Both the position numbers and the translations under genes were made by a program. Of a DNA stretch of 64,000 bases, positions 4,518 through 49,400 are shown in pieces. Under the pieces are notes generated by a model, which was not told the origin of the DNA, ran no database searches, and saw only the letters and a program-made list of their open reading frames with translations. Position 1 is the stretch's first letter; every line of letters starts with the position of its first letter. Origin of the DNA: Ascidiella aspersa (lineage: Eukaryota); assembly GCA_963924565.1 (NCBI GenBank), contig OZ004614.1, positions 24,056,001 through 24,120,000 of the forward strand, read 5' to 3'.

Positions 4518-7461
4518 TGTTAAATAACTTCACCATACAAGTCATTTGTTAAGGCAGTTAAACTAATGTTGTTGAACTCTTACCACGAGGGAACGTAAAC
4601 ACAAAATCAAAACAAACCCTACGCAAATATAACGGTTAAATCAGCTAATCTGCGAAACAGGCGTAATAAGGAAGTATTGTAGATAAGAAAAAAAACAACA
4701 CTGAGTGCAATCAGTTCTACATCAATGATTATTATAAGTCATACTATTTATCCAATGGGGTCGCCGGCTTAACAGTAAAGTTTTAAACATGTTTTAAATG
4801 TAACATTAATTTTGTTTAATATAATATATATATTTTTTTGTCAAGTATTTACGAATAATTATTATTTTTGTTATGTATCATTTTTCACCTTTGTTTTTTG
4901 CAAAAATTCTTAACTCGAATTGAATCACGGCCAGAGGGGGCAGCTGACCAGATGAGTTAACAGTCTTTCGCCGCCCCCTGAGAACTACGAACTCTTCGTT
5001 TTTTTATTTAATTTTTTGCATGTACTTACCGGTGTTCCAAAATAAAGTGGAATCTATCTATCTATCTATCTTCCTTTTGCTAAATTTGCTTCGATTTGCT
5101 TCACTTCTTGTCCTATTTCGTTTCTTGCCGTTACACCTTTACGTTTTCACTTGTATTCACTCATTGTTTTCCACTTTTGTTTCAGCCCTGAAGGAACATT
5201 TCTTCGTTTGCAATGCAAAGCGTTTTATAGCACGAGGGCAGTCTTGTGTTAGTTGTGGTGTGGGATGGACACTAAAAACGTAGCCTGGTTAACTGTTTGG
5301 TTAAAGTTGTGGCTAAAAGATCGTTTTATGTCGCTTTCAAATTAATGTGATTTGGTTCAAAAATCGAGATGAAAAAATGTTGCCTTGAACTTCGCATTAT
5401 TGCAGTAACCATAATTCAGGTTATTAATTTACTTATTAGACTTTTAGCGAAAGTATGAAGTATGAACTGATTTCTTTTGAAGGTAAAATGTATTTAAAAG
5501 CCAGAGTTTAAAGCTGTCACTATCGGATGATTTCAGTATTGTGGTATTAGCAAAACTAGCTTTTAGTTCTACTTTTATGGATTGTTTTACGTACGAGGCG
5601 CGAACATTTATGTGTAACACGGAAAAAATTGTGGCATGTAATAACTTTGTCGCCCCTTTGAAATGTTTGTGGAACTAGCGTCAGCATGTCTCAACGTTTA
5701 TGTTATTTTTTGAAGAAAAAAAAAAGAAAGAAATAGCCCAGCGTTGGCGCGGCCTTTGTCCAATAATAAAGTTTTCTAATTTAGTTTTATGCGTACACGG
5801 GGTCAGCGAAAGGCAGTTAAGATAATATGGCATAAAATTCAGACATGAAGTGATAAATTGAAGAAATGGCATATGCTGCAATATGATTACTTCCGCCATA
5901 CCAAGAGTTGTAAATTAAGGCGCAATTGACTCTGACATTTTCAAACTGTGGTTTAAGATTGAATCTTAAGTAATAAAGCGATAATAAACAGTCGGTTTGG
6001 AAACCCTGTAATACTTTTATCTTCGGAGCATATTGATTGGAGGTTGTAGTAATCTTTGGGAACAAATTAAGGCGTTTTTAACCCACTTGATGCCCATAGC
6101 AGTTGCAAAGGTCTTGGGTCTGATGCACAAGATTAAAACAGGGCGAAAAAAACTGTGCTAATCGCATTGAATTACTTAGGCTGCTTATATTAAAAACACC
6201 TTGTTTAATAAAGTTTCATTTTGACGACTTACATTGCAACAAAGCCCGAATATTTAGGAAAAAGTTTGTTTTTCAGGTTTTCTGCTAAAATCCTAATTTC
6301 CATTCGAAATCACAGCGCTTAATTCCTTAATTGTTACTATTTACATCAGGTTAAAGTACAAGGTTGTGTATTTTAATCTGATTTGCATTCATCGTTTAGT
6401 ATTTATTTGAATCATGAGTATTATGAAGTAAACAACTTAAGCACCAAGATTAAATATTGGAATTAATTCGTAATAAATTGCAAATATCCAGATTTTAGGA
6501 AGTGCAGTCTAATACGAAATTTTTTTTTAACATTTTGCCTGTTTCCAGATTTTAGTACAAATTACTGAGGCTTAGTAAAAGATTCAGTTATTCGATAATA
6601 ATTGTTATAAATAAACATTTCTCTAAAATCATCACTAATAGCAGTAACGTATCAAGCAGATAAATATTTATATTTTGTCAAAAACATCCTTAATATCTGC
6701 AACATAAAACTGAAATAGGAAAATACGTAGAATTATAGCTACAGTGTTTACAAATTTTGATTTACACGCTTACATTAAAATTGCGTTTAGCAAAATGTCT
6801 ATAAATGGAAAAAAAAAATTTACTGCTGGAAATTTTATATGTTAATCCCCCTAAGATGCCAGAATATTTTATTTATTTGTTGTTGTTTTTAACGCAGTGT
6901 ACTTTATTAATAGGTTAATGTTCCGCATGTTTTTTTAATTGACGTTCTTGCTAACGAAGTTGTTCCTATACAACCATAAAGAAACAGACACAAATTCTTT
7001 CCAAGTATGATCTTTTATTTACTTTCCATCCCGGCGAAAGACAAGCCTGAAAATCAAGGTTTGTAACCAAATGTCTTCAATTTTATAGTTATACAACTCT
7101 ACATAATAGCCGATCTAGGATTTTTTAATGGGAATAGGAATTTTAGTTAAAAACAAAGTCCAAAATAAATTACGTTTAATGTCGGTGGAGCATTTTTTTG
7201 GCTAAATCGAGTTTAAAAAAATTAAGACATTTTTTTAAATGTCATTGAAGCACTCGCCCCAAATGCATAAGGTAACGTTTAAAAAATGTCTGATCCTGGT
7301 TTTACTTGCATTTCAAACTTTGAGTTCCATTGCTGAACTTGGTTGTGCAAGTTGTGAAAAAAATTGTTTACCTATATCTTTAGTTACAGGTGGAAAAAAG
7401 TTCAAATTTATGTTTCATCACAGTCCCCATGATAAATATTTTAATATTGTTGTTACCGTTT

Positions 7462-8067
7462 TCAAGCCTCTCTATTCAACACATGTTCATAAGGATCGAC
7501 GTCTTCCAAATCTAAAAAAGTTAATATAGCACTGTGTGGTTAAGTTGACTAGAATTTATAACGAAAAGGTGCGCGATATTAGCATTTAAACATTAAATTA
7601 AAAATGTTGCCAATCCAATATACTTTACTAAACTTATATAAACAATTATTATAGACAACCTATTTCAGAATAGAAAGTTTCATGCGATACCTTCGACATT
7701 GTGGCTTTCATCCCTGCAAAAAAAACTTTATTAGAATATAAAAGTAAGAAATTAAGTGAAAACGATTGCGTACTTGATTGTTACTATTACAAATGTCCGA
7801 TAATTGACTTTTTTGCGATACCGATTCCCGATATTTTGCAAAACAGATCGCGATCTAATACCAAAAATGACGTTATTGCTATAATAAGCAAATTGTTTTC
7901 AAAAAGGAATAAAAGTTGCTGATGTAAGTTGGTTATTTAACTTACCAGCAATAGCCACCAATGCATCCCCTCCTTCTTCGATTACGCCGTCTTCTTTTAA
8001 CCGCGTCTATTCCCGACAGCAGCAGACAAGTCATCAAAAGCACGACCAAAAGCAGTCTAGAGTTCAT
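7462..8067 (-). CDS. Secreted Arg-rich peptide precursor 'a' (candidate antimicrobial peptide), 64 aa
   Basis: Exons 8067-7946, 7713-7691 (23-nt microexon), 7511-7462(TGA); 3'UTR exon from 7046 with AATAAA at 6908-6903. Translation MNSRLLLVVLLMTCLLLSGIDA-VKRRRRNRRRRGCIGGYCW-DESHNVEDLEDVDPYEHVLNREA*. Splice sites and frame are conserved in the diverged paralog c. Confidence 0.85.
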
Positions 8068-8254
8068 TGTGAGTTGCAGTGAATTAACACAAACTGAAAA
8101 GCAAGGACTTAAGTGTGAGAAATCAACGATACAGTCGTTACGGATAAGTCGATAGCGACGAAATCCTCTGCACGAATTAAGTCAACATTTTCTGGATGCG
8201 TACCACTCAGTGCATTTCTTCCGTCGCTGTTACCACAAAACAACATTTTAACAA

Positions 8255-8485
8255 CGAATTCACTAATGTACTGTCTGGGTTTAAGCATTAGCTCGATAAC
8301 ACACACTTAAGAAGTTGCTTAGCATGCCGTGTGGCAAGAATGTGCCTCATACACGCAAGTCACAATCTTTATTAGTGATTTATTTTTCTTCTAGGCCTAA
8401 CCAAACGTGTTATGACGCATAATAATCACCAGAATCACATCCGTATTTCCTTCCCTTTCTACACTTTATCCAGCACATAAGCTTG
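8255..8485 (-). promoter_or_regulatory. ~200-230 bp conserved module upstream of peptide genes (other copies ~13196-13405, 14770-15005, 16660-16842, 42290-42518, 43537-43745, 46795-47032, 47958-48162, 50205-50380)
   Basis: Recurrent block ...aagaagttgcttagc..ggcaag..gcaagtcacaatctttattag..ccaaacgtgttatgacgcataataatcaccagaat.acatccg.atttccttcc..., lying 5' of every peptide ATG. A regulatory role is inferred from position only. Confidence 0.5.
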
Positions 8486-8499
8486 GTTATTGCACTTAC

Positions 8500-8627
8500 T
8501 CGCACCACGTTCCAATGCACAATCTCCTTCTACCTCCGAAAAACCTCCGTCGTCTTTTACCCGCTTCTGTCGCCGACAGCAGAAGACAAGTCATCAAAAG
8601 CACGACCAAAAGCAGCCTAGTGTTCAT
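8500..8627 (-). CDS. Peptide precursor 'b' first coding exon (no own downstream exons)
   Basis: MNTRLLLVVLLMTCLLLSATEA-GKRRRRFFGGRRRLCIGTWC-GA|GTAAGT. Upstream TTTTCAG acceptor and phase-2 donor are intact; it is followed directly by the upstream module of gene a. Confidence 0.7.
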
Positions 8628-9228
8628 TGTGAGTTGCACTGAATTAACACAAACTGAAAAGCAAGGACTTAAGTGTGAGAAATCAACGATACAGTCGTTA
8701 CGGATGAGTCGACTGCGATGAAATCCTTTGCACGAATTAAGTTTCTTGCCTGCTACACACGAAGCAAAAAAAACATATTAGGGACCGCGGTAAAATAGTT
8801 TAAGAACTCCTGACAAAATCAGATATCAACGATACCATCGTTACGGAATGAATCTATTGTGGCGAAACCTATTCACGAACTTTACATTTAAAACAAACCT
8901 AGGAATTCAAAGTTTACTCAGGTTTTACTACAAAAATGAATAAACAGTAGCAATATTGAAACTTGTGTTAATTATTTTCCTAAACGACGCATATAACCTT
9001 AAAGCTGCTCGTGTGCCATAAATATAACGTAAATAACGGTTTGAAAACCAATTCACTAATGTACTGTCTATAGATCTAAGCCAGGGGTGCCCAACCTGTA
9101 ATACGCGTACCACTAGTGGTGTGTGAGTAGCTTACGTCTTTTCACAAAAACTTGGATTTACAATTCATATTTTGTATATGGTTTTGTTTACAAAAAAAAT
9201 CTAAAGCCAATTCATTGTTACGTAACTA

Positions 9229-12889: not shown

Positions 12890-15800
12890 TATCCCTAATG
12901 TTTCATACCATTAGGATCTTCAAAATACAGGTGATGTGAATTGTCAACAAGGAGCATAGCAGTTGCTTTGAAAAGCCGCACAATGCTGTGGACAGTGGGC
13001 GTTTATTTTGTCAAATGATTGCTCTTGATAAATAGCATCTACTGTTTTATAGCTACTCTACAAATAGCGTTGAACAATGCTAGTTGCAAGCTAAAAATAT
13101 GATTCGATCAAATTATTTGTTCTGCAAGAAGTGGTTCGCGTGACACTACAGAGCGTCCATGTGGTATGAGATCGTAAAAAGGTTGGGAACCCCTGGTCTA
13201 AGCATTAGCTCAATAACACACACACATACAAGAAGTTGCTCAGCTTAGCGTATGGCAAGGATACTTCCATAAATGCAAGTCACAATCTTTAGTAGAGATT
13301 TCTTTCCGTTTTGGTCCTGACTGAACGAGTAAAGCTGCTTGATAATCACCCGAATTACATCCGCATTTTCTTCCCTTCACACAGCTTTAAACAACACATA
13401 TGCTTGTATATAGCGTTGTCCCTATAGTGTTGTCTTGTATTTAGCGTTGTCCCTGGTAGCAAATGTTGACTATCGACATATGTTAATTTTCTATCGGTGT
13501 TGGTTTTTCTCGTTTCATCAATCCGTTTAATAGCTGACATCAGTGTTGTAAACAAGTCATTTGAAATGACTAATTCCCACAAAAGTAATTTGTAAAATAA
13601 ACACGTCCAGCTAACGCCATTCTTATTAAACAACAAGTCTAGTGCATGTCCAAATCATCAGTTGTTTCGAAATCAAATCAATCCCATTCAAGTAATATTT
13701 AAAGCAAGTCAAGTCAATTAATTTTGCCCCCAAATCTAAGTCAGGCCAAATAATTTGAAAACAGTCACTCAAGTACAAATGTAATCGACTTGACACAAAA
13801 TAAAGTACAAAAATTATCGCAAGTCAGTAAAATACTGCCTGACAATCATTTGACATGTCTTAATACCCACTTCGAATACCCCCTCGTTGAGCTCTTCCAT
13901 TGGAGAGACACAATTCAATCGTTTTATGAACCTCTTGAAGAAAACTGCCATACGGTTTTGTATTTTACAGCTTTCGATGTTTCCGTTAAGACTATGTCCA
14001 TACATTGTTGATCGCAATATTCTAGTGCTCACAGATGGTGATTATTTTTTTTACTTTCTCAATCAAACTTTGAAGATCAGAAAGAGTTAATTCCCTTTCC
14101 AAAAAAGCGACATAATCCAAAATGAAAATGAGCAATATACAGTGACACCACAATCCATTTTTAATTGGTAATGTAGTAGAAGATAAGTTGGATGTGTTCA
14201 GGAACTGCTTCATACCAAGGTTTATCTGGCACGAATTCGGGAGATCGACAGTTTGTAAATATTTCAAAAATTACGAAGAGGCCTCTGATCAAGTCAAAAT
14301 CGATTTAATATTTTCGACAACATATGTCATTAAAGCATTTGGAATTTCGATTAAAATTTAGCATACATTACTTGGAAGCACCTAAACTGGCTTATGCTGC
14401 AGTTTGAAGGTTATTTGCAGTACTTAGTAAATATTCCACTGACATTTTAGCAACTGGTTTAGCAACCAGTTGAAACCACATACAGGCCTACTGATTAGCG
14501 TAGAATTTTATGAAGTGAAAAACAAAATTTTAAGCCGCGTTAGCCCAGGTCGTTTCCCGATTATAATGCAAATAATTAGGACTTAGTACAACAATACAGC
14601 TATTCGATAAATGTCATAAATAAATATTTCTCTAATAGCATCAACAAGACAGAAAAGTTAAAACGGAAATTACAAGAGATAAAAATTTATGTTTTATAAA
14701 AGCACTTATAACATTGCAGCATTACACCGGAATTTAACATTTAACTTAATCTATTAATTTTCCCGTTTGAGAACCAATTCACTTATTTACTGTCTATAGG
14801 TCTAAGCATTACCTCGGTGAAACACACTTAAGAAGTTGCTTAGAACGCCGTGTGGTAAGAATGTTCCCATAAACGCTAGTCACAATCTTTATTAGAGATT
14901 TCTTTCCCTTCTAGGCCTAACCAAACGTGTTATGCCGCGTAATCATCACCAGAATTACATCCGTATTCCTTCCTTTTTCACAGCTTTATCCAGCACATAC
15001 GCTTGTAGTGTTGTCCCTTAGAGCAAATCTTATCAATCTACATAAGTTTTTGCTAGGGCTGTAGGCTTTTCTCTCATTAATTCGTTTTAATAGCTAACAT
15101 CAGTATTGTAAACAAGTCATTTGAAATGACTTAAATCCCACTCAAGTCATTTGTACAACAACTAAGTCCAAGTAAAGTCATTTTTGTTAAATAACAAGTC
15201 AAGTACCAGTCTAAATGATCAGTTCCCCAAGTCAAGTCCCAGTCAAGTAATAATTGGAGCAATTCAAGTCCAGAAATGTTGCCCCAAAACTAAGTCAGGC
15301 CAAATAGTTACAAACCAGTTACTAAATAATACAAACCATCGACTTTCACAAAATTAAGTTCACTTAATGTAACCAAAACAAAGTTGCCGAACTGTAAAAA
15401 CAACATCAGCTGCTATCAAAATCAGAGCGTTACGTAAAATGAAACAATTAAAACCTGTTTTCTAGAGTTAAAATTTTCTTTCGAATAACAGAATATGCCT
15501 GAATTCGAATGTTGAAAACAACCGATTCTGGTTGCACATCAATGATAAAGATTAAGAGAACTTAGTAAACCGAAAATCATTTGTTTGAATGTTATAAAAT
15601 GATAAATATATTTCGCTACTAAAATCATCATCAGGATTTCATGCTTTTTTTATGTATTTTTTATCTGTTTTTTTTAAATCAGATTTACACCAAAAGTAAA
15701 CAAAATCCACTCTGACCAATTTAGCAAAACTTTTTGTTGGGTTTATATTTGGCTTTCCAGATTTTTTTTGCCTGATAGAGCATAATAACGTGTTTGGCGA

Positions 15801-18800
15801 TTTTACTAAAAATCTTAAATCGCCGCTTTTCCTTTATGCATTCGCTTTGCTCAAAACTCGTTTAATTCTCCAACATGTCTTCGCAATTTTGAGATATCTC
15901 CGCAGAATATTCACAACAAAGACTTATTTTTTTCCGAACAAGACTTATTTCATGTCATCACGGCCACGAAATTACGGGACCCATCTCTTGACAGTTCGTA
16001 TTCCTTTTTAAATGTAGTCATCAGATTTAAATACTTTAGCAGGGTGTCGGTACCACAAATAAGAACTGACTGAATTTGCAAGATATCACGTTTATTGCAG
16101 CGGTTTGAACACTAAGCAAATTTACATTTCAAACAAGATTTTTTTAATTGGATGCAGTATGGTACCTGCCGGGATTACGTATTTGCTTAAATTTCGCGCA
16201 ATTTGAACAATTGGTGCAACGAATTTTCACGTTTGTTAATCATTTTTAATCGACATATGTCCCGGGTTTTCGTTATGTAAAATATGCGAGACGTGTTTAG
16301 TCAAGGTTGTGTGTTTAGTAGCTCCATTTTTAAAAACACGCAACGTTGCCATTTGGTTTGTTGTTAAATATATATTTTTAAATTATCGGGAATAACATGC
16401 GGCTTCAGGAAGAAGGTTATACAATGCTGGTAACATGTGATTAGTGATTAAATGGTCAAAGTGCGGTCGCGCCTTTCCTTTAGTGACCTATTTCAGACAC
16501 GAAACTGCTTTTTATACGTTAATTTTTCATTTTTACACTGTTTTAACCAAATGCAAAAATAATGGGAATTTACCGAGACCAGGAATTAGATCTTTAGAAC
16601 TACCCAGATAAGTCACATAATTAAACACGCCATTCCATTAATGCCGCTTTCACACAGGAAAGAAGTTGCTAAGCGTGTCGTATGGCAAGGATGTTTCCAT
16701 AAACGCAAGTCAACATCTTTATTATACATTTCTTTCCGTTCTGAACCTAACCAAACGACAACGTGTTATGACGCATAATAATCACCAGAATCACATCCGC
16801 ATTTCCTTCCCTTTCTACAGCTTTACCTAACCCATACGCTTGCATGGAACAAATGTTGACTACTGGCTTTCTTGTCTCATTCATTTGTTTTTATAGCTGA
16901 CATCAGTGTTGTAAACAAGTCATTTGAAATGACTTAAGACCACTCAAGTCAAGTCAACTCCCATTCCAGGTCATCAGTAGTCTTAATTGGAGCAAAGTCA
17001 CGTCATTAAACTTAATTGGAGCAAGTCACGTCATTTGGCTCGAAAACCCAAGTCAAATAAAATAATTGAAAAGCGTTGATTTAAGCCTATACAAAAGTCA
17101 TCGACTAAAGTCAGCGCAATACTGGAGGACATATGTCATATTGTCTCCGGCGACAAACTTCATTTGCTGAAATGTATACAAAGCAACAGCAGTCATAAAA
17201 TGTCTCAGCGTTACGTCAATTACCGATGAAAAAATTGTTTTCTGTGAACCCGCACCATGAGTAAAAAACCCACTCACTATGACTAGTTTAACAAAACATT
17301 AAATTTTGTTAATTCATTTTTGGCTTTCCCCCATTTATCGGCCTCGATTATAATGGTGTGTTTGACGATTTCTTTAGGATCTTCCAATACTATAGAAGTC
17401 CTACATAAAAATTAGGTGCACATATGGAATGAAACACGTCGCTTCGTCTTCGGACATTTAAGTTATTTTAGCAAAGGGCTTAGGCTGCACGGAGTTGGCA
17501 AAATAATTAATTACAACCAATTTAGTTCTACTGCCTCAAACTACTTTCGAACTAAAATATTTTGGCGATTTGTGTATTAAGACAATCCTCGAAGGTATAG
17601 AATAGAAAGAGTATAATGTTTTTACGATATTGGACGACATTGTAACATATTGCGCTATTCTCGTTGACAGACTTCAAACATTAAATACACCTTATGTTGC
17701 CATAGCACTCTGTGGAATCAAGCGACAAAAATTAATCGTTTTATGACCAACCTCTTAACGAAAACTGCCATACTGTTTTAAACAACACAGCTTCCGTAGC
17801 TTCCGTTAAGATTTCGCCCATATGTTGTGCATCGCATTTTCCCAGTATTATCAGATCGTGTTCGTTTGTTTCAAAGAAGTTTTTAGAACAAATTCGGAAG
17901 AAGAATCAATTCCCACTCCAAATCAAGCGATTTTAATTAAACTGAAAACGACCATGTTAATAGTGGCACCCAAGCAGGCTTGGACAACTATAAATAATTC
18001 TAGTTATCTTATTGAATTAATTCAGAGCAAAATGCGGCTAATTTTAATTCTAATCTAATTTGTAAATTGCTGGTGTGCTTAATTCTAGTTCTATTTTCAT
18101 TCGGATTTTCATAAAAATGCCACTTTGTCCAACGGCATTTATATTCTCCCAGTTGAAACTAAGAATTTTAATTTAATACTCTTTGGGTGGCACAATTTTT
18201 TGTGATTTTATAATGTGAAAAGTATGATAAAACATCATTATAAAAATTTGCACACAAATATTTACCCATTCGCATTTATTATGAGAATAATTAGCGAATG
18301 AGATATAATTTATTGTCGATAAATAAACGTAATGGGGGCCTTAAAGTGTGGGACACGACACGAAAAGTCACGCCAAAATTGACGATAAAAATATATAGCG
18401 AAAACACAAATGTAATTCACGTACAAGTCAACTTAGCAACGTTTTATGATTGTTTTCATATTTTGGGAGCCAGCCTGTTGACTTGGTTCTACACGAAACT
18501 GCAGGAAGCAATAGATTGTTAGTAACGCTACTTCTCCATTAGTAACGCTACTTGGCGATCGGGTATTTAATAACACGGAGCCGTTATGGTTAGCTACTGC
18601 GATTTCCCGAATGGCTAACCCGAGTGGAATAATATACACATGTGGAAAATGCATTTAAGTTGTAATGCCCTTTAATTGCGCGAAGAATGTTAACTTGTAA
18701 AATAATAAAAAACATGACATAATGGAAGAAACGACTTTGATTTAAGCATACACAAGTACTGGAAGTTATGGTTTTAAGGATTCAATAACGACAGTCGCAT

Positions 18801-19459: not shown

Positions 19460-22400
19460 CTAGTAAGCTCTCACGTACACTGATTGGCCAACAGCAGCGT
19501 TACCAATCCCAAACTGCTCGTATGCTGTGTCTTCACTTGCAGCAATCCTTGAGACGTTGTAAGCTTGACCAGGCGACTCGCCATTGGCTGATACGTAGGC
19601 AACAGGAATGACGTAATCACTGTCGTCAGACGGATGGTTGGTGACGTTATAGCTGGGATGAGCAGCAAAGCTAGTGTTGACGTAGTTGTTGCATTGTCCT
19701 CGAGATTGATCTTCAGCGTTGATGGACTTAGGGTCGTGACCTAGAAAAAAATAAAGCGTTGAAAAAAAAATAAAATATTCTTAGGCACAAAATTCTATTT
19801 GATGCACATGAAAATTCTTCAAATGACAAGACATATTTTGTTAATATCAGACACCAAGATGTTTGTAGTATATTTACCTGCTTGGGGTGGAGAACGATTG
19901 TCACTTTTCCGTTTTTCAAGCTTTGTTAAAATTTGGTTTCTGAATGAAAAAAGCACAAATATATTCACTTATATATTTAGCAAACACACAAATATATTTC
20001 ACAAAATGGCTGTCGGGGCTTACAATACCCACCTCTTGACGTAAACAAGAACGGCCACTCCAATTAGTATTATTACGGCGCAAGAAACTCCTATTGGTGT
20101 AGCAAGGCTGAGACTAGAAACAGACTGATTTTCTGAAATTAAAATACTGTTCGCTATCCTGTTTGTATATTTATGTTTAAAAGTCTTAACTTATGATGTG
20201 ATTCAAATTATCAGTATACGCGAAACTTGGGGCAACTTTACAAAAGAGCTTAAAGTTGTACATTACGTATAAGCTGAATATAACAATAAAGTTGCCTTGC
20301 GTAAATATAAATTTACAAAGCAACATCCACACTTTTATATGTGCCAGTATTTCATAAAAACATTGTAGAGTCTAGCATGGTTTACTAAAAACATTTGAAT
20401 GAAGTCACCTATTGGCAGATAACATACGCCATTCGATGCAAGAATTGTATTTCTGCACAATGACGTAATTGGGTGAAAATCTGACGTCACCGTGTCTCCC
20501 TTGTTCAACGTGACGTCATGAGTCAGTGTAATGAAAGATGTCAGTGTTATTTCGGAGGTTGTGGTTTTGTTGTTTTTGCTGGTTCTCTTAATTTTCAACT
20601 AGATACAAACGAAGATTTCAGAAAAATATACTTGGGAAAATCAATAATTCAAATGACATACCTTTGCACTTGTTATAACTGAAACAGAGGTCGACGGAAT
20701 TGTGATTTTAATTTGGCAGATTTTGTTTTGAAGGGTAAGTTTAGAAACGATTCCTGCAAAAACGTTTGAAGTTGATCCAGAAACAGTTGGCGTTTGGGGG
20801 ACTTTCCAAATATCAGGAAACAGCTTAATCTAAATTATATTGTTTTAATTGGAAAATGTAAACCAAAGAATCCTAACTAGTTTTTTTTTTAAATAAGGAA
20901 AATTAATGATTTTGAACTTACTTGAATCTTGTAATCTTCATTTCCAGGCAGGGTCGGAAATTCAGTGGAGTAAACATAGTTTGCAGAAGCCGTTGTTTTG
21001 TAATTTTTCACGATGTAAGTAAGCTTGTCATAACTTTGTGCAATCAGCTGAAAGTTGAAATCCCGGGAATATTTTGTTTCGTCAATCCACTTCACAATTA
21101 TTTTGTCGTGGTGGCACTTGGTAGCTTCAGTAAAACGAACAACTAAAACATAGAAAAGACAATTATTGTTACCAAAAAACATTATGATAATGGAAACGCA
21201 AAAAGCTAAAATTTCTGCTTATTTTGTAAACTAGAGTATTATTTTTCACTAATACTCGTTTGGTTGGTAAACTAGATTATTACATAATACTTACTGGGAA
21301 AAACACAGAGAGTGGTTAATAGAGCATTGCAATTCTTGATTTGTGATGTTCCGTTAGCAAATGAAGGACATTTGTCCGTTTCTAAAGTTGCATTCTCATT
21401 ACCTGAATTAAAGAGAAGATGTAATTAATTTAGCCTTCATTTACTAAAGTGGACAAATGTGGTAAAATTACTTTGTGTCCAAGCTGCAAACTTTGCAAGA
21501 GAGCTTCCGTTGAGATATTCCGACGACGGTAACTTGCCTCCGCGGTTCTTACAGTGGAGTTTGGCATCCGTGTATTTTCTGCTCGTGTTGTAACTGACGT
21601 AAAACTGTCCATTGTCGAACAGTAAATCTGAGGAAACAGTATTCTAAATAAAGTAACATACCCAGCATATGGTTTTAAACTATTATTTGTGCATTTTTTG
21701 CGGACCTAAAACGATAACCCATACAAAATGTCGTGCGAAATTACTGTAATTGTATATTTTCTCCGTGTACAGTATTTTGGCTGTAAACTCACATTACAAT
21801 ATTGCAATGTTTCACCAAAAAAAAACACTAAAGAATTACAAACGTTGCATAGGCCACAAAAAAGTGTTGTTACACAGAAAATAAAACACAGTTTATTACC
21901 TTGGTTAATCATAGGAAAAATATTCCCTGTAGCACCGAATTCATTTCGTGCCGAACACTTTACAGTCGCGTTGGCGCCAAATATCGCGGACGCTTCTATT
22001 GTTAGTTGTGACGTCACTGTTTTGATTGTACTGTGGATTGAGACGTAGGTTGGTGACGCGTCGCTGATGATTGTGACGTTTTGGTCGTTGATTGTCCAGT
22101 GAAAAAAGGTCGACTGGTCGGCGGCAAACGTACAATTCAACGACTGTGATTGGCTGAATTCTGCACCTGGTGATGACGCGTTAAGAAACCTTGGGGCAAC
22201 TGAAATGTTCAAAAATCGCAACCTTATTTAATAAAATTAAACCAGAAAGTGTGTCAAACATTTGCCCAAACATGCATTCACAATCTGGGCCCCGAAGATC
22301 GCCGGTTCGAACCCCCGATTCCCTGGCTTAGCAGGCGTTGAGTAACTTAGGTTTAGCTTCAAATAAACAAAGTTGCAAATTTAGTTAGGCTAAAAACATA

Positions 22401-25400
22401 TGTCTAAGCAGGAACTTCACGGCATGAAGAGAAAACATATGTTGATGAAATATATTATATTTTATTTCTACAATAATGTGAAGGATTTACAATCGAAATA
22501 TATTCGGTCATAAAAAATATTTTCATTTAGCAAATCGCTATTGATCCGTAAGCATTAAAATGTAGTTCCGCAATGGCTTGGATTATTTATTTAAACGGGT
22601 CTTTATACATTGTTTCTTCAACAAAGTGTAAACCATTAAAATATTTTGTTATGTTTCTTTGGGCTCTTACCTCTCACAACTAATGTTTTTGTTATTGCGG
22701 TTAGTATGCCGTCGCCCACTCTGTTGCTTGCATGGCAAACGTAATATCCACCGTCCGCTGTTGAATGAGTTGCTTTGAATGTAATAACAGCAACAGTCTT
22801 GTAGATCATCGTTTGAAGTATAGTCTGATATACATTAGCATCACTGCTTGCCGATACATTTTGTGAAGCTCTGTAAGTAAATTCAAAATATGCACACGAT
22901 TGTCTTATGTACTGGATAACATATTCAAAAGTTCAGAACATCACAATTGTAACATTCCACACGTGCTGTTTCGACACCAGAACTGTATAAAGCACAATAC
23001 CAAGAGGAATACTTTGACCAAGAAGCACTTAATTTTATTGAGCCATTTCAGGATTTTAGGCATCAACCAAAATGTATTAAAATCGTGTTTTTTTACAGTT
23101 CTTACAAACAGTGCTGTGGAGTCGGGGCCGGACTCGGGACTCGAGTAAGATTATACTTGGTAGCTCATTTGCAAGTTTGAAACCGATAAAGCCGTACACT
23201 GGAAACCGTAAGGGCGGAAAAGCATAGAGCGGAACATATTAAAACCACAGTATGTGGGTTGGTGGTACGCATGACTCTCCTTTGAAAATTGATGCATATC
23301 TACATTATTTTAAATATGGGGAGGGTGAATACTGTTTGTGCCGGTCACAGTACTCGATGGATTCGGTTAATTTGACCGGAGTAGAATTTGGGACGCGGAC
23401 TTTGCTTCTTTTAAACCGTAGTGAAATTTTTTTAATCTATCTTCAACATGATCAATTGCGTTTAATTTATAAATAGCGCCCGATTAAAACACGGCATTTT
23501 TGCTCACTTTGTCCAGTAAACTTCTGGCGTTGGAAAGCCGTACGACGTGCAGTTGATTTGTGGCTGTTGATCATCTTTGAGAGTAGCTGTTGCCGACGAA
23601 AGAGATATGTTGGCCTTCGCTAAAAATAACGATGAATCCTGTTAACGAGTGCAACTTTCCTTTTTGCTACTTTGTCCCAATTAATAACGCATACCTTGCA
23701 GTTGAAAGGTGGTTTGAACAGCATTAGCATTGTCGTTGTTGTTGCTTGCTGTGCATTTGTAAACTCCAACGTGTTCGATGCTTGCTGCGTTAAACTGGAG
23801 ACGAACAATCTGACGGTCATTTGGATTGATGATCGTCGTCATTTGATGTATATGAGATGCCGGATTGGAGCTGACAGTTTGAGCGTTTCTGTGAAAAACA
23901 AATATTTACAATTCTTGCAACAGCAGTATTTTATTTTTAATTTTTTAATAAATAATTACATGCTCCATGCGACTGTTGGTGCCCGCCATCCATAAGACAC
24001 GCAATCCACATGGAAACTAGCTGGAAACATTTGGATCCTCCAAGGTGATGATGGGGAAAGTGAAATGTTAGGTCCAACTGAAAATATTTCAAGTGTTTAA
24101 AAATTACATCATAAGGCATTGACGAATTATTGTTTAAAAAGTTTTTACATCAATAAAATAATCCAGTGGTCGGCAAACAGTGGGCCGCAGAGCCATTCTA
24201 AGTGGGCCGCGAGGTCAATTTGAACGCAAAATTTTTCGCGCGTCACGCGTATATTCTTCGTTTTATACTATGTTTCACATTATTATATGGCAATGTTTTG
24301 GCAATCAAGGCGCCGTGTAATATTCCAACTTAAAAACAAGTATCCTGAATCTGCCTCTGTTTTCGTAGTGGTTTCACGCAGTGGGCCTTTTATATCTCTG
24401 AAAAGAGTACTTTGGGCCGTGACAAAAAAAGTTTCCCGACCACTGATATAATCATTAATTGTACACCATGATGCTACAGTAAAAATATTTTAAAGCTGTA
24501 ACGATGGTAATGCAATTAGCTTCTTACTTTTTCTACTTCTTACGATTTTTACACTTATGAAGTATGCCATGAATACAGTATTTCTTGATATTTAATTGTA
24601 TCAATACCCTATACTTACTTAATATTTGCAGAACAGTAAACTTCTCTTTTCCCCCGTTTTGAGCGGTGCAATTGTATCTTCCTCCCACTTCAACCATTGC
24701 AATTGGAATGTGGAGTGTTGCAGTTGATTTGTATTTCGCAACTTCAGTCAAATTAGTTTGATAATACGGATCGTTGTTGTTGGAAGAAACCCCCACATCG
24801 TTTGTTCTAAATTTATTAGCGTCGATATATTTAGTTTCATTGAGACACACCAACGCTAATAAACCGAAACCAACCTCTTCCGAAATACGTTAGGCATGGG
24901 ATTACCATAACTGGTACACGTTGATGTAATCGATTTATCGCCATAATTCGCGGTGATTGCGTTCGGTGTTGATAAAGTCATGTTCGGCTGCACTGCAAAA
25001 TTGTTTACATAGGATTTGACAGAAAACAAAAGACATCCGTGAAACTAACGAGCACATAATTTAGCTTCAGTACCTAATGACAATTAAATGCACATACGAT
25101 TTTAAATTAGTAGAAATTTATGTACAAATCAATATTATTCCATTTGTAACTTAGTAAAATTGATTTGCTAAATATAAGCCCAGTGGTCGGCAAACTTAAT
25201 TTGTCGCCACCCAAACTGATCACAAAGTTACGTCATAAGACAATTAACTCTAAACACCTGTTGTTTGGAGCGCGGATATGGAGCTTATCCCAGCCTAATT
25301 GCGCGTCACACGAAAAAAAGTCATTAATCGTTTTAAATTGGCCAAACGTTATTAAAAAGGATATGTAACCCATGAAACACATAGCAATGCATTCGAATAC

Positions 25401-28400: not shown

Positions 28401-31400
28401 TAGTATCGGAGGCTTCTAATTTACTAAGCTTATCGAAATTGAAGCAACTGTATGGCATTTAATAAGCATTTTGTGCCACTAGACATAATATTTTTGGTCT
28501 CTACTTACCAAGGATAGTTAGAGTCTTGCTTTTCACGCCACTTCCAGCCCAGTTGGTCGTTTTACATTCGTACAAACCCCCGTTTCCAGCGTCGTTGTTG
28601 ATTCTAATGTAAAGATCAGAGTTGCCAGTTGATCCTCCGCTCGTTGTAGTTGAAACTTGATAAACTACAGTTGATGAACTGGAAGATATCTCAGCGTTGT
28701 TCCTTAAAAGTAAAAAAAAAGTTTGTGAAATTCATTCTGTAATAAAGTGCGACTATAGTAAATCCGTTCTTCATTTTAAAATCTTATGCTTTATTATGCC
28801 ACGATTTGGTCATCACTTTGTTTTAGTATACCTTTTTGTATTGTAAGGATTGCTTTTATTCAAGATATTTAAAATTGTATTTGAAAGTAAGACATATTTT
28901 GTTTTTCTAAAATGCTTGTTTATCATTTTTTTTATTTAACTATAACATACTTTAGTTCATACGCTATAAAACAACCACACATTGAGAACTTATTTTAACC
29001 AGCAAGTAGTTCGTCAAGTTTATAAAACAAACGCAAAAGCGTGAATAAATACACGTTTACATAGTACGTTTAGGTTGAAATAAATGTAAAATAACATCGA
29101 AGTTTTGGGCGAGTTACCCAACTTATTATGGCTCATCGCTTAAACGTAACTAATTACTCGTTTACATTGTACGTTTAATAAGTGTAAAACTAACATCGAT
29201 TTCGGGCGAGTAAATCAGTTTGTTTAGTTTATTGCATTGTCTGTCTCGCATATTCGATTCCATTGTGTCAACAAGATGCAACCAGAAATAAGTAAGATAT
29301 AAACACAGACTTCTAAGTCCATCTTACCTAAACCATCTACACTGAGGCTGGTGATACCCCGAGCATGTGCATTTCTCAACTGTCATTATGTTGATGCCCA
29401 ATGTCCGTGTTGTAGATGTGAGATGCAATGCAGAAGAACCTAAAAGCAAAAATAAATTGTAAACACGAAACTACCCAACAACTTACACAGAACGTATTAC
29501 ACACCAACTATTGATTCACAAAAAATCTTCAAGAATATACGTAGCGGAAAAGTTCCTAAGACAACACGTTCCTATATTTATTTTACAACTTTGAATACAA
29601 TATTGTTTATTTCTATATTAGGAAATATCTAAAAGTAAATTTAATTACCAGCTACAATGTTGACTGTTGCAACGGCAGTACAAGTTCCAGCACTATTTGT
29701 TGCAGTGAACACGAAATCTCCGTTGTGTGACAAGGCGACAGAGTTGATGACGTAAGTAAAGCTCGTCCCAACTAAATTACTTATTACGTTGGTGTTTGTT
29801 CCACCATGGGCAACAACCACGTTAAGAGGTTCCTTGTAAAAGCCAGAGATGGTTCCTGTGAATGTCAAACTGCTTCCCAATGTTGGTGTGCTGGTTGATG
29901 ACGTCACAGCCAAGTTGCGTTCGACTGCGTTGAAAAAGTCAAGAAATTAACCAAAAAAAATACTATTTTGCTATTGGTTATAAAGGTTAATTATTTTTAT
30001 CATACTGTATTGTTTGTTTGTATTGCTATGGTGTCCAATTTACGAAAAGACTGTCTTTCAACTAACGCCGTAAAACCTCATTAATTTTGATCGCAGGGAA
30101 CAAAGCAGTGGCGTAGCCAGCCGAAAAATTTGAAGGGGGGCCAAAAAGTTGGAATTTTCGGTTTGCTTTTACCATTGTATATACACCGTAACGAACACAA
30201 ATAACAATGAAAGTAGTAAAACTACATTAATGTTTAGCAAACGTTATATTAACTACATCGTTTGCGACGTAACAATGCATGACAACTTAAGGTGTGGCAT
30301 GCCTGGGATCGACTGTTGTGGTACTGCTTATAAATGCTAAAAAAAATAAATTATTAAGAGTAAAATATTTATAAAGGCCCCCTGGCTACGCCTATCATTC
30401 AAATTTGCCCTTGCAGAATCAATGGCGTACGAAATTGTGAATCTTAGAAACCATCGATGGGTAAAGTAGCCTATGGTATCATTTCAAATACGAATTTAAA
30501 TTGAACCTGCGCAAACCAATTTTACCCTTATATTTGGATGGCGGCCTATACTTTATTAAGAACCTCCGGCGTATAAAGAAATAAATAGTCTTGCAGAACC
30601 GTCAGTTTATTACTTCTGGAACATCTTAAATCAAGCTAGTAAATTACTTTAAACTAATTGAATATGTTGTTGCTTACAGGCATGGTTTCAATTGTACAAT
30701 TGCCTTTCCGGCAAAATTTTATTAAAGTTTATTTTTTATTCGGTTTAAAATTCGAGTCTACGTTCACACGTCGTCATCCATACTACTAATGAAAAGTGTA
30801 ATAAAACAACTTTCTAACTTTAATAGTTAATGTAGTTCAGTGTTTGTTAACCTTTTTTAAGTCAGGGCACACCCGGCAAGCGAAACGAGTGCGATTTTTT
30901 TTGGTATACGTGCATTTCTTTTAAATTTTTTGCAAGTTTTATTACCTTGCCAAAACTAAAATAAATGTTAACAAATATACGTCCAATACGACGCACGTGG
31001 CAGCCTTCCACGACACAACGGTAAAAAGGCACTGATCTAGTTCACAAGACAGCATCAAAACGTAAACAAACCAGACGTGCAAAGATCATTTGCGCGAAGC
31101 GCGAAAATATTTCGCACTTACTTAGGTAAAAACGTCTAAAGGTATTTGAAATGAACTCGTGTTTAGATTATCAAAGAGGCGGCGGGCCGGATGAGTTACA
31201 TTGGCGGACCGGATCCGGCCCGCGGGCCGTAAGTTGCCGATCCCTGATTTAAACTAATTGCTCATCAAAACTGTTTTATTGTTTTCAAGTACTAATGTTG
31301 TAAAATTACACACCCAACGAAGGTAAAAAGCTGTTTGCCGTAAACTCATCACGCAAAGCATTAGAGGCTCAAACATTCCAAAATAGAATGTTTAACCAAT

Positions 31401-34400
31401 ACTTCCCTCTTAAGTTAGTACAGTTAGACCGATCAGCGCAATTCACCTTGGTATTCGCAAATGTGATAGAATGTTCCAGTACACCCCGCAGCGCCCCACT
31501 TCCAAATGTAAGTATAACTTCCTGGTGACCCGGATTGTGTTCCGAAAAACACCATACATGATCCAAAGCTTGTTGGTCCACTTCCACTTATCCATCCATT
31601 GTATCCTGGTGTTGACCAGGTGCTGCCTGCTTAAAAAGATTGGTCGAAAAATAATTATTTTAAAGTTCGTACGTGTTGTGCAAGCATATAGCTATCGTTT
31701 GTTGTCTGCTTTGTCTAAATTTGTGTTTCTTTTATTTTTGACAGAATTATGTTTATAAAGAGAAAACGTTGACACCCATGAATTCTTACCGCCATCACTT
31801 TCTTATTTTGCTAAGCCAACATAAAAAGAATGGAATGATTGAGAAGGAAACAAAATCCCACTTTTAAAAAGCGAAAAGTTAGCACTAAGGATCATCACAC
31901 TTTTTCGGAGAACTGGAATGCCTGACTAACGAGGGCCGAATATAATTTTGTTCCAACTTCATCAATTTAGTTTTTGTTAATCAAAGAAACTATATGTATA
32001 TTATAGTGTATATTACGTCTTATATGTATATTATTTAATAAAAAATGTCATGAGTTTTATGAAATTGTCGTTCAGTTTTATAGTTCTTTTAAATGGTTTG
32101 AATTTGTGTCCGACAATGGTACAACCGATTAATTTAGTCTTAGATTTATTTTCGCAAAAAGACACGGACATTAAAAGGCCGGCCAACTAACTTTTCAAGT
32201 TGCAAGTTTCCAGCATGTGGTGCATATACATTCTGAGTGTTATATTGCTTTAAACATATAGATCAATACAGACAGCGCCGGCAAAGTCTTTATTGATGCA
32301 GTACGCCTACGGTATTCAGTACGCCTACGGTATAGTATAATGAACCGTCCACAAAGTAAATAAATCAACTACTTTATTCGACATACTTCTATCAACGAAA
32401 CGTCATTCTGGACTTTTGTAATGCACAACCATTACGACAAAATACATATTTCAACATAATATATTTTATCGTGCAAATTTCTCCGTAATAAAACCGATAG
32501 TTGCGACGACCTTAAATGACAAGTTATATGTGAACTTTCGCATAATATTAAACAAATAGCCCCACTACTAGTTATTTTTGTTCAACGTTTCTATATTTTA
32601 CACATTGTACGTTACAGCATTCGGTTTATGTAACCCTTAAAATAGGGTTTTCCACACTTTTTTGGACCACGGACCACTATTTGTGAATCTGTTTTTTCGC
32701 GGACCGCAATACAAAGCAAAAAATAATTAAAACCAAATTTTATATATTTACAAAACTGACAGCATCAATGGGACGAATGAGATTGCTTCTCTCTGCTTAC
32801 ATCATTAATTCATCATAAACTCAAAGCGCAACAAGTAAGATTTACGATATTGGTTAGCAAAAGCTTTCGAAATCGATAAGTTGTGAATAACTGCGGCAAT
32901 TTAATTATTTTTTAAAGAATACACATGCTGTACAACAGGGGTCGGTTAAAACCAAACTCAGAAAGGTCTCTGTGGGCCGCACAAAATGTTAACTAAGAAT
33001 TATGTTATTAAAATGTTAGAACAACTGTTAATCAGGCGGGCTTCGGATATGTTTTTGCACTTAAAATCGTGTTTAGTTACTTTTAAGGAGGCAGTAAAGT
33101 GTTGGCGCAAAGCGGGACAAAAAGGGTTTGTTAGTTTCAAAATTCGAGTCCACACGTCGTTATTCAATATTGAAAAGTGTAATTAAACCATTTTGAGAAA
33201 ACGCGATAACTTAATGGTTAATCGAGTTCAGTGTTTGTTAACATACCGTATTTAAGTCCGTGCGCACCTGGCGAGCGAAGCGAGCGCGATTGTTTTTTGG
33301 GTACACCGGCATTTCTTTCAAATTTCTTGCAAGTTTTTATTACATTTCAAAATAAAAAGTAAAGAATGTATGTCCAATATTTTTGAACACGTTTTCCATT
33401 TGTACGCGACGCACTTTGGCACCTGGCAGTCAGTCTTCCACAGAGCAAGAAGCGCTAATCTAGTTCAAATGACAGTATCATAATATAAACAAACCTTATG
33501 AATAAAGATCGTTAACGCAAAGCGCGAAAAATGTTCGCACTTACAGAGTTGAAATAGTCAAAAAGTATAAGAAATGGACTCGTATCTAGTTTATCAAAGG
33601 ATAAATTACATTCGCGGGCCGGATCCGGCCCACGGGCCAAAGGTTGTCGGCCCCTGCTTTACAACATATAGGTGTAACTTTTTAATATCTTAATTCAATA
33701 CCCTAAATAAAAAATTCAATACCCTAAATAACATGCTCAAACGATAAGTAAAGTTAAAACGTGTAACAATTGTAGGTTGACTTTCTTATGGTAAGATAAT
33801 TACCTGAATAGCTTGAAAATGTCGTTCCGTCTGGCCACTTAAAGTCGTTTACAGTGCGTTCCCCGCCAATGAAGGCATCTGGCAAATGATTTGTTTTAAC
33901 ACTTGCAATAAACAATTTAGGCACAATGTCGATGTTTGTATATACTTACAAACGTTTGAGCCTCCAATCCACCCGTTTCCAACCTTGTTGCTTGCGAGAG
34001 TGCTGAGATGGCTTTGTGTTGCTTCGTCAGGAATACTTGCCAAGTTACCACCTCCATTAATGCAAGCTGTCTTGGCTGTTGCTTGAGTTACTTTGACGCT
34101 CGAAAGCACGAAGTTTCTTCCCTTGCATGTTGCAGCGCCTATAACAGCACATAATGCTCTAAGCTGAATTTGCGTTTATTTTTCCAACCGAATCTAACTA
34201 CAAAAGGTTTTAACGATAATTAAGTTCGACGATTGTCAAAAATGTGATGCCATTTGACAGAACCATGAACAAAATGCGCGAAATACAAAAATCGAAACAC
34301 AGATATTACAATACAATAACAGCATATTGACAGATAAACAAGTGCTCCGCAACCTTTTTCCACTTGCGGCAAACCAAGAGTACTATAACAATACGGCGGC

Positions 34401-34812: not shown

Positions 34813-35147
34813 CGGGTGAAACAAGAAAGGAAACTGTTTGACTAGAAAGCTTGAACTCTTTAAGCGCTGGCTATCCTTGCAGCTCCGAAACAAACTAAGC
34901 ATGTGATTGTCGGTTAATGTGGCCAAGCAAGCCAGCAGGTGAATAAATAAATATGTACGTATAAGAACGAGGCGTTTAAGATCTTTCAGTGTTTCTAAGT
35001 GACTATGACGAAGGCAAAACCTACAAAGAACGGCGTTAACTACGTAGGTTTATCACAGTATTTATAACTAACCCTCTTACGATTTTAATATCAGCAACTT
35101 ATTACGTATTGCCTAAAGTAAACAAACTAAAAAATCATGGGCTACAC

Positions 35148-46416: not shown

Positions 46417-49400
46417 TGTGAGTTGCACTGAATTAACACAAACTGAAAACTAAGATAACTTCGTTAACAGTGTGCGGATAAGACGATTGCGGCGAAATCC
46501 TTTGCACGAATTCAGTCAACATTTTCTGGCTCAGTGCATTTCTACTGTCGCTGCTTACCACGGGCTTTCCAAATAAACCATTTAATTCAAACTTTACTTC
46601 GGTTTATGACTAAATTATTGAACAAAATAATATCGTTGGAAGCGCAAGGCGCAGATTTCCGATTACAGTTGGTAAAATGCGCTTAAGAGAGAATATAACT
46701 TTCCACACCGCAATATATTTGCAGTGATTTCCTAAACGACGCATAGAATCTGAAGGCTGCTCGCGTTCTTTGCGTATAACCTGAACAACAGTTTAGAACC
46801 AATTCACTAATGTACTGTCTATAGCTCTAAGCATTAGCTCGGTGACGCACACTTAAGAAGTTGCTTAGCGTGCCCTGTGGTAAGAATGTTCCCATAAACG
46901 CTAATCACAATCTTTATTAGAGATTTCTTTCCGTTCCAGGCCTGACCAAACGTGTTATGCCGCGTAATCATCACCAGAATTACATCCGTATTTCCTTCCT
47001 TTTTCACAGCTTTATCCATCACATACGCTTGCAATGTTGTCTCTTAGAGCAAAACTTATCAATCTACATAAGTTTTAAGTTTTTGCTAAGTTTTTGCTCA
47101 GGGTGTAGGCTATTCTCTCATCATTCCGTTTCATAGGTTTCAACCCGTGTCATAGCACCGAATTTTCATTCATTCCTGTAAAAAAAACATTCTAATTTCA
47201 CCACTTGGTAGATGACACCGAATGCTGGTAATACAATCGATGTAATACAACGCTGGTTTCAGCGATCCATACATCTCACTTTACAATGCATTATAAAAAA
47301 GACTAATATAAGGAAAAAACTTGCGGATATAAATAACGCTTCGTGATTACATAATTTTAGCGTTTGAGGGCGCATACAAGTGTGAAGACTAGTCTCAAAT
47401 GGGATTGCTCGGTGTCTCTTCTCATGTCATATCCCGATAGCTTCCTACGTCTCTTACACGTTCCTTCTGGCTACAATGATGCGGGCCACTAAACCACTCT
47501 TTCTTATACGATGGTTGAATACGGGATAAGTATATTCACCATTAAATTGTAGCGCACAATACAGAATAAACAGTTATTCAATCGACTCACGAAGAAAACA
47601 TTGGGCAGGGTTTTTGAATATTGTGGCGTGTTGTACAATCGCTATTGGTAATACATTCGAATAATGCATGCCCGATTAGAGATTACATTTAGAAGGATGA
47701 GTAATAATTCCTGATTAGAAGTATTTTGTTCGATGTCTGGTATTAAAAATGGGACACTACTCGAAATGTCACGCCAAAACTTACAATAAAAATGCCTAGC
47801 GAACAAACAAATATAATTCATATTCAAGTCAAATTAGCAAAGTTATGTGATTGTTTTTCTTTATATTTTTGACAGCCGGCTTGTGGTCTTCGCTCTAAGC
47901 GAAAATACAGGAAGCAATACTGTAGATTGTCGAATTCGGTGCTTACCCTAGTCAGCGGTCTAAACATTAGCTCGATAACACACACATAAGAAGTTGCTTA
48001 GCGTGCCGTATGGCAAAGATGTTTCCATAAACGCAAGTCACAATCTTTAATAGAGATTTCGTTTTCTTCTAGGCCTGAATAAACGTGTTATGACGCTTAA
48101 TAATCACCGAATCACATCCGTATTCCTTCCTTTTTCACAGCTTTATCCAGCACATACGCTTGTAGTGTTGTCCACAAGAGAAAATGCTGACAATCCACAT
48201 AAGTTTGGAGTGTAGAGCTTTTCTCTCATCAATCCGTTTTATAGCAAACATCAGTATTGTAAACAAGTCAATCTATCAGTTACTTGTATACAAATACAAT
48301 TACAATTTTTTGTAGAGCAAATCTTATCAATCTACATAAGTTTTTGCTAAGGGTGTAGGCTATTCTCTCATCAACCCGTTTCATAGCTAACATCAGTATT
48401 GCAAACAAGTCCTTTGAAATGACTTAAATCCCACTCAAGTCATTTGTACAACAACTAAGTCCAAGTAAAGTCATTTTTATTGAATAACAAGTCAAGTACC
48501 AGTCTAAATCATTAGTTGCCCAAGTCAAGTCCCAGTCAAATAATAATTGTAGCAATTCAAGTCAAGAAATATTGCCTCAAAACTCAGTCGAGCCAAATAG
48601 TTACAAACCAGTTAGTAAATATTACAAACCCATGACTTTCACAAATTAAGTTCCAAAATAATCAACTCACACAACGTGAAGTACAGAAATCATTGAAAGT
48701 CAGTACAATAGCTGACGATAACTGTTCCTAAGCGGTGCGGGGATATTAAATCAGACACAGAAAATGTACTAGTGCAATCTATTTCTTTGCTCAGTTAAAT
48801 GTGAAACTAACTCACATTTTGGAATTGTATTACTGTGTTATCAGTTACTTGTATAAAAATATGTATAATGTGTTGTTTACTCAAGAAATTCTAGAAGGGA
48901 TGCGAGAATTGTTTGGTGATTTGAATATCGCGTTTGTTGTGGTTGAACAGTAATCAATTTATATTTTTAACAGGTTACGGGTTTGTCTGACGTCGGACTC
49001 AGCTTAATTTGGCGTTTAGTGCAAAGGTTTAGCAATTTTAACTTTTTTTCACTACATTTTGTCTAAACATCCGGAATCCTACACGGACATCGTTCAACAA
49101 ACAACAATATATTTACAGTGATGGAGGCGAACGGCTAATAGCTTCTTGCAATGTGTTTAACCACGAAATACTTGGCAGAGTTCGCAAAATATTGCTTTCA
49201 TTGCATCAGTTTAACAGTACGCATTTTTGTTTTTTTCAATGAGGATTTTTCTCACGTTTGACGCAGTTTAGCACCGGGATTACGTATTTGCTTAAATATG
49301 ACGCTATCAAGCAAGTCTAAACATTTGCTGCTACAACCTAAAGTTTTACGTCCGTGAGTTATTCTCAGTTGAAAAATGTTACGGGGTTTTCGTTACTAGA

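Follow-up and report, generated by a model that had tools for sequence, protein, structure and literature searches.

A clustered family of spliced, arginine-rich prepropeptide genes with a C-x4-C motif and an acidic tail, candidate antimicrobial precursors, in an ascidian genome

The window analysed here, a 64,000-nt stretch on contig C8 of a 308.6-Mb genome, carries on its minus strand a small family of spliced genes for predicted secreted, arginine-rich prepropeptides (unless a contig is named, coordinates are window positions). A six-frame scan gives five signal-like starts on this strand, at 8627 (copy b), 8067 (gene a), 42663 (copy b'), 42101 (gene a') and 46416 (gene c), and the ATGs and first exons that the first-pass annotation had placed there were all located. 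In genes a, a' and c, as it had also proposed, a first exon of 122 or 131 nt is followed by one of 23 nt and one of 55 nt, which carry a 23-residue tail of net charge −8, and the introns are in phase 2 (after exon 1) and phase 1 (after exon 2); the junctions it gave for a and c (7946/7713, 7691/7511, 46286/45965 and 45943/45763) are canonical GT-AG, like the others. The precursors are 64 aa (a and a') and 67 aa (c) long, the mature parts carry +9/+7, and a non-coding exon 4 with AATAAA lies downstream of the coding exons in each gene (Table 1). The proposed five-locus family is reduced in one respect: all five first exons are present, but b and b' consist of exon 1 only, with no exon 2 ahead of the next gene's start, and the ring of b' is interrupted by a premature TGA at 42540-42538, so that b' is, to judge by its reading frame, a pseudogene. 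In the 432 nt downstream of b the sole acceptor is the one ahead of the ATG of gene a, and copy b could conceivably splice into exons 2-3 of that gene.

A chance origin is excluded by three comparisons. A signal-plus-basic filter returns six matches in the window, five of them being these loci, and 0-3 (mostly 0) in 30 shuffles; strictly splice-filtered two-exon tails number four over both window strands, and three are those of a, a' and c, each with −8; and in the comparison of a with c, exons 2 and 3 are gap-free at 83% and 78% identity, whereas the three introns (71-76%) contain 6-13 gap blocks each. Exon 4 is 88% identical between the same two genes. The predicted signal peptide, called by inspection of hydropathy and the −3/−1 rule, has a hydropathy of 2.7-3.2 across 11 residues and small residues at −3 and −1.

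An acceptor-like TTTTCAG site stands 26 nt upstream of the ATG in all 11 C8 copies and is probably a cis- or trans-splice site of the 5′ untranslated region. It also permits a different account of these exons, in which they would give an upstream receptor gene with C-type lectin and immunoglobulin (Ig) exons another membrane anchor and cytoplasmic tail; that gene lies on the same strand and could be joined through the 26 nt, open in frame. We regard this as highly improbable, as the short hydrophobic core stops at a site of signal-peptidase type, membrane and tail exons are already present in the receptor, and in sibling genes elsewhere in the genome the same acceptor is 13 or 18 nt away from the ATG, in other phases. 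A kappa-B-like word about 120 nt upstream, found by eye and with two mismatches to the consensus, was not used.

Table 1. Coordinates of the peptide genes, partial copies and other features in the window.
Feature	Position	Strand	Remarks
Gene a, exon 1	7946..8067	-	122 nt; predicted 22-aa signal, Arg-rich part, ring C-I-G-G-Y-C; sense RNA depth
Gene a, exon 2	7691..7713	-	23-nt microexon in which the acidic tail begins; sense depth ~22 bases
Gene a, exon 3	7457..7511	-	55 nt, remaining tail and stop; ~32 bases of sense depth
Gene a, exon 4	6900..7046	-	non-coding; AATAAA at 7019, 6908, 6877; 3′ end approximate
Acceptor-like TTTTCAG ahead of gene a ATG	8068..8100	-	acceptor at 8093; kept in all C8 copies
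Copy b, exon 1 only	8500..8627	-	predicted signal, Arg-rich part, ring C-I-G-T-W-C; frame and donor intact
Gene a', exon 1	41980..42101	-	mature part same as a; signal peptide with three changes
Gene a', exon 2	41725..41747	-	
Gene a', exon 3	41491..41545	-	
Gene a', exon 4	40940..41083	-	non-coding; 3′ end approximate
Copy b', exon 1 only	42533..42663	-	pseudogene by its frame; premature TGA
Gene c, exon 1	46286..46416	-	131 nt; ring C-I-G-I-Y-C, then Gly
Gene c, exon 2	45943..45965	-	
Gene c, exon 3	45709..45763	-	
Gene c, exon 4	45135..45282	-	non-coding; 3′ end approximate
Receptor gene, two copies	19463-34175, 52945-64000	-	C-type lectin, several Ig exons, several Tyr motifs
Receptor membrane segment	20023-20190		
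Receptor Tyr-motif tail	19463-19780		
Tandem repeats within receptor gene region	27845-28338		41-42-nt units, core GGAGCCGGAGCC
Dispersed repeat	8239-8485, 13195-13809, 14766-15362, 16651-16951, 42273-42526, 43536-44150, 46784-47076, 47957-48270, 50194-50381		200-600 nt, about nine copies

The genome is that of an ascidian, the setting assumed at first pass, because matches to cellulose synthase and GH6 lie 3 kb apart on contig C5 and two vanabin matches score above the cut-off on contig C3; cellulose synthase is described as tunicate-specific (PMC6523144). The vanabin-like matches form a cluster of three (L051, L052, C3 25.47-25.49 Mb). Exon 1 of gene a has 26 genome matches at E 10, eleven on C8 within 24.03-24.46 Mb and the others on C1, C2, C3, C5 and C7. 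Exons 2-3 occur at ten C8 sites, nine of them complete genes; at the tenth (L029, 24.312 Mb) exons 2-4 are intact and a different sequence, reaching as far as the former donor, stands in place of exon 1. These copy counts are lower bounds. The cluster thus holds nine complete genes, two first-exon-only copies, one copy without exon 1 and one 1.7-kb loss of a c-type gene, a pattern that is, as far as the copies themselves tell, one of birth-and-death. Both cysteines are invariant in the nine aligned C8 first exons. The ring follows the pattern C-[IT]-G-x-[YW]-C, which preserves the Cys, Gly and aromatic residue of the motif C-I-G-x-aromatic-C first put forward for the family, but not its Ile, which is replaced by Thr in five of the ten intact C8 first exons.

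Thirteen further genes on C2, C3 and C7 have the same exon plan, with the signal and Arg-rich part in exon 1, a phase-2 intron, a short acidic exon, a phase-1 intron and an acidic last coding exon. They have C-x7-C, an internal C-x5-C, one Cys or none, and the C-x4-C loop therefore varies within a broader poly-Arg/acidic-tail group. At least nine of these prepropeptide genes form a second cluster at C7 11.22-11.33 Mb (L013-L015, L017-L020, L022, L023), with mature parts of +12 to +22 that end Phe-Gly or Ile-Gly and mostly have the internal C-x5-C, and tails of −11 to −20. The closest sibling of the C8 genes is L012 (C7 12.56 Mb; C-x7-C), while L016 (C2) encodes a nearly pure Arg peptide with a single Cys, and L025 and L026 (C3 2.01-2.07 Mb) are Cys-free with a repeated Lys-Trp-Ala-Gly-His unit. 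A further candidate, L024, was dropped for its different signal and exon pattern. With a blind splice scorer, exons 1-2 came out the same in all 22 kept loci and exon 3 in only 10; because the scorer rewarded long frames and was unreliable there, exon 3 was set by shared motifs.

The charges of the two halves of the precursor are closely balanced (the count omits L021, b and b'). Mature parts of +7 to +9 meet tails of −7 to −8 in the C8 genes, the sum lies between −1 and +2 in all nine complete ones, and the tail is −8 in eight of them although residue identity drops to 0.48. The phase-2 intron marks the end of the mature part, whose last residue is Gly in 12 of 13 siblings and in four of nine C8 genes (Arg in three, Trp in two), and the first residue of the tail is Asp in 21 of 22 genes; these ends would suit a cut ahead of Asp, and amidation of those peptides that have the Gly. 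Arg makes up 32-43% of the mature part, and its helical hydrophobic moment is low (0.10-0.23). An AlphaFold model has a helix over the signal, and a pLDDT of 40-55 over the mature part that is uninformative for the loop.

These are intron-containing ascidian prepropeptide genes, and we consider it probable that their products are a Cys-looped, non-helical form of the ascidian antimicrobial precursors, secreted and masked by their tails. The layout of signal, cationic and anionic parts recognised in the first-pass annotation is borne out by the gene structure and by comparison with Ciona. On this explanation the predicted 22-residue signal would be removed and the precursor secreted, with the acidic tail likely masking the Arg-rich part in transport and storage; a cut ahead of the first Asp of the tail, at the exon 1/exon 2 boundary, would free a polycation of 19-22 residues, the two cysteines would likely close a six-residue hydrophobic loop, and copies ending Cys-Gly would be amidated. 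The Arg stem would then likely bind anionic microbial surfaces and the loop, with its Phe, Trp and Ile residues, anchor in the membrane, instead of an amphipathic-helix pore being formed. The peptides may originate in haemocytes.

None of the indexed RNA runs contains this stretch, and the RNA evidence comes from about 6% of one raw run, X3, whose source tissue is not stated. Thirteen X3 reads were placed within 6800-9000, with a sense-oriented total of about 300 bases. At gene a the bins for exon 3 and the microexon have 32 and 22 bases of sense depth, exon 1 has 246 and the intron bins in between have 0, which would fit one read of 96+23+32 bases plus another over exon 1; these reads have a'-like letters at two sites. 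Within 40500-47500, 324 X3 reads were placed, 314 of them only partially (mostly repeats). Two sense reads in exon 1 of gene c reach roughly as far as its donor and place some 35 bases in the bin of exon 2; they carry the letters and the 3-nt gap of Thr-type paralogues outside the window. Antisense joints at 7058-8527 (3 reads) and 45788-46302 (2 reads) are GT-AG on the plus strand in Thr-type copies; they stem from Thr-type paralogues (for example L003, L007, L008 and L010), share an acceptor opposite exon 1 and make it likely that a spliced antisense RNA runs across the peptide genes.

Over the nine C8 genes, mean residue identity is 0.89 in the signal and 0.73 in both the mature part and the tail, and pooled pN/pS is 1.13, 0.68 and 0.77, respectively. 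The earlier claim that the mature part varies most stands in that this part alone has indels and has the highest pN, but not in its identity, which equals that of the tail. A conserved signal with a variable mature part would count in favour of an antimicrobial role. Between gene c and the copy at 24033 kb the signal differs at 0 of 66 nt and the introns at 38 of 491 (p 0.016), and the selection comparison of the mature part with introns gives p 0.09.

The window contains a repeat unit of about 33 kb, which carries, besides the peptide locus, the receptor gene mentioned above. Its tail exon is found in 11 copies at ≥90% identity over the cluster interval, with 26 receptor matches on C8, and the gene appears to belong to an expanded immune-type receptor family. 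The first repeat unit (junction 14763-14767) is without a 1.7-kb segment, 45090-46791, that holds all of gene c. The dispersed repeat of Table 1 flanks the b-type first exons and, judging by its positions, may have helped partial duplications. Since the peptide genes are repeated along with the receptor, their copy number alone is no sign of selection on the peptides. One small ancestral gene might even have been multiplied as a passenger of the receptor, with most copies silent or drifting, as a peptide locus 4-11 kb downstream of nine of the 11 receptor-tail copies, three partial or broken copies, pN/pS near 1 and few sense reads would suggest. This we think improbable, in that nine complete genes retain frame, splice sites, both Cys and tail charge, and indels sit in introns or as whole codons. 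In X2, a run that like X1 behaves as DNA and shows the locus in further samples, one contig over exons 2-3 has 12 substitutions and two indels, all intronic. Even a passenger history would leave the ancestral function to the antimicrobial explanation.

All homologue queries were made with exon 1 only. No usable homologue emerged from a single exon 1 protein search, from alignment A1 (none at E 10 among 1926 candidates) or from a broader one, A2 (8000 scored). Across 1.84 billion representatives HMMER gave one match, rejected as a 595-aa repetitive protein matched at profile positions 10-30; PDB gave one match at E 1.6 only, and Atlas one 0.76 match in one search and none in the next, nothing of it usable. 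Clavanin (PF05452) has no match genome-wide at E 1, nor in the exon-1 scans. The first-pass annotation, which had recognised no known homologue, is upheld within these searches, although such blanks are weak evidence of novelty because the queries were confined to exon 1 and tiny spliced genes are likely under-represented in databases. Pfam yields weak matches to Toddler/ELABELA (PF22050; best E 0.016, three of nine members, 16 bits against a cut-off of 27) and to GPR15L (E 0.011, one of nine), the E range for the two being 0.011-0.046.

These matches raise the possibility of a prohormone or cytokine-like precursor, in which a convertase would cut at RRRR and free a short disulfide ring for a receptor. 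Urotensin-related and oxytocin-type disulfide rings act on receptors, and the polybasic run right ahead of the ring in all C8 copies, the C-x4-C spacing and the Gly after the ring in four of nine are in keeping with such a role. We judge it unlikely nonetheless: the Toddler and GPR15L matches cover the signal and basic stretch (residues 5-36 and 7-39) and not the ring end, the ring residues differ among young paralogues, and among the siblings the loop becomes C-x7-C (L012), moves inside or gives way to one Cys or none while the poly-Arg and the acidic tail persist. The ring motif of urotensin II/URP is W-K-Y, and the ring of oxytocin/vasopressin is followed by GKR and neurophysin; neither is present in the family translations.

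Several observations weigh against the antimicrobial explanation. The RRRR sites adjoining the ring could be cut, and the low helical moment is unlike that of the clavanin and Ci-MAM types. Mature charge (+7 to +22) tracks tail charge (−6 to −20) over 22 genes (Spearman 0.85; 0.71, p 0.07, over 7 groups), but this correlation is suggestive and not proof, because the genes are related and exon 3 was picked by acidic motifs, which leans towards the result. The pooled pN/pS of the nine C8 genes gives no sign of positive selection, and the expansion of the cluster may have been carried by the receptor gene with its 11 copies. Antisense or intronic reads outnumber sense reads in the X3 sample, which contains none from gene c itself. 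The junction reads called for at first pass have a partial counterpart: the depth of about two sense fragments agrees with the exon plan, but no joint at the peptide splice sites is listed in the X3 sample at a 3-read threshold, so that splicing is read from depth arithmetic on these fragments. Finally, L021 (C5 28.79 Mb), a secreted protein with thrombospondin-repeat-like exons, has Trp and poly-Arg after its signal and no acidic tail seen, from which it follows that poly-Arg alone is no mark of an antimicrobial peptide; it may be a general N-terminal tag in this genome.

The poly-Arg start of L021 also bears on a reading as a structural or storage polycation. Such a peptide would act in granules or wounds, where it would attach to sulfated polysaccharide, tunichrome or tunic matrix; the tail would help to keep it soluble, and any killing would be secondary. 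The Arg content and low amphipathicity of the mature part would suit this, and ascidian cytotoxic cells cross-link the tunic too (PMC5465252). We think it quite unlikely, however, as the low X3 expression does not suggest bulk material, Tyr/DOPA richness is lacking, and the C3 and C7 siblings carry helical-looking cationic segments that end in Phe-Gly.

A bolder form of the antimicrobial explanation, which we hold to be rather unlikely, would make all of these genes one undescribed superfamily of ascidians, with 22 or more members spread over four large contigs and encoding poly-Arg peptides with charge-matched acidic propieces. Its C8 branch would have evolved a Rana-box-like loop on a non-helical Arg stem as a new salt-tolerant antibiotic scaffold, be inherited together with the lectin/Ig tyrosine-motif receptor as a repeated sensor-plus-effector cassette and be under the control of spliced antisense RNA. 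The link with a repeated receptor of immune type lends itself to testing, and the range of paralogues (Cys-free, single-Cys, C-x4-C, internal C-x5-C and C-x7-C; tails −6 to −20) amounts to a natural experiment on the roles of loop and propiece. If the peptides are antimicrobial, the few ascidian antimicrobial peptides that contain Cys are joined by a scaffold that is short and easy to synthesise; the family also points to a class that was excluded by design from the Ciona screen (PMC7387483).

The system is not of a new kind, since its precursor logic is already established in ascidians. In PMC7387483, whose screen had removed Cys-containing sequences beforehand (244 to 165), a signal is followed by a cationic and then by an anionic part in 17 of 22 Ciona candidates, and KH.C7.94 (+11) and KH.C1.640, both Arg-rich with anionic tails and low hydrophobic moment, killed E. 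coli and S. aureus at ≤6.25 µM. The C8 genes resemble these two, Ci-MAM and Ci-PAP in ascidian origin, in precursor length (64-67 aa, within 50-100 aa), in the order of parts and in combining a conserved signal with a variable mature part. They differ from the linear Ciona peptides, defined as Cys-free, in their invariant C-x4-C and the absence of a detectable sequence match, and from the helical ones in a low helical moment that does not fit an amphipathic helix.

Precursors of clavanins, styelins and botryllin have an anionic C-terminal extension. These three are ascidian cationic peptides made from prepropeptides and C-terminally amidated; they are helical and His/Phe-rich with no intrachain disulfide, unlike the C8 peptides as predicted. 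The known ascidian antimicrobial peptides further include halocidin, dicynthaurin, halocyntin, papillosin and plicatamide (PMC9966394, PMC10608444, PMC10817596, PMC13518417, PMC5198042 and PMC5465252). Turgencins, whose six Cys form three disulfides, are described in PMC7024374 as the first cysteine-rich peptides of this kind from ascidians, and halocidin and dicynthaurin have one interchain disulfide, in contrast to the predicted C8 loop; like the C8 peptides all three contain Cys, and none is an Arg-rich single-loop peptide. The literature searched, in its available parts (subscription papers, APD/DRAMP and the supplement of PMC7387483 lying outside its scope), likewise yielded no Arg-rich single-loop tunicate peptide. 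Of the suggestion that the form is undescribed, the novelty of the terminal loop survives, but the Arg-rich, weakly amphipathic type is known and active in Ciona; the apparently unmatched element, within the databases and literature searched, is the terminal C-x4-C loop on an Arg-rich peptide.

ELABELA/Toddler, urotensin-related peptide and the oxytocin family share with the C8 genes a signal, a basic stretch and a C-x4-C ring, from which the C8 peptides depart in a Pfam score below cut-off, the absence of receptor motifs and neurophysin, the acidic tail and the multi-copy cluster. In nicomicin and the frog Rana-box peptides the C terminus forms one loop, six (or seven) residues long and in nicomicin hydrophobic; the C8 peptides have the C-x4-C spacing from which a six-residue loop is predicted. 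In the former (PMC6265681) the loop follows an amphipathic helix where the C8 stem is an Arg-rich stretch, and nicomicin has a BRICHOS-containing acidic proregion ahead of its 33-mer where the C8 mature part directly follows the signal. The C8 peptides are thus not members of the linear helical, Rana-box, clavanin, Toddler or urotensin families, and the likeness of their loop to that of nicomicin and the Rana box is likely the product of convergence.

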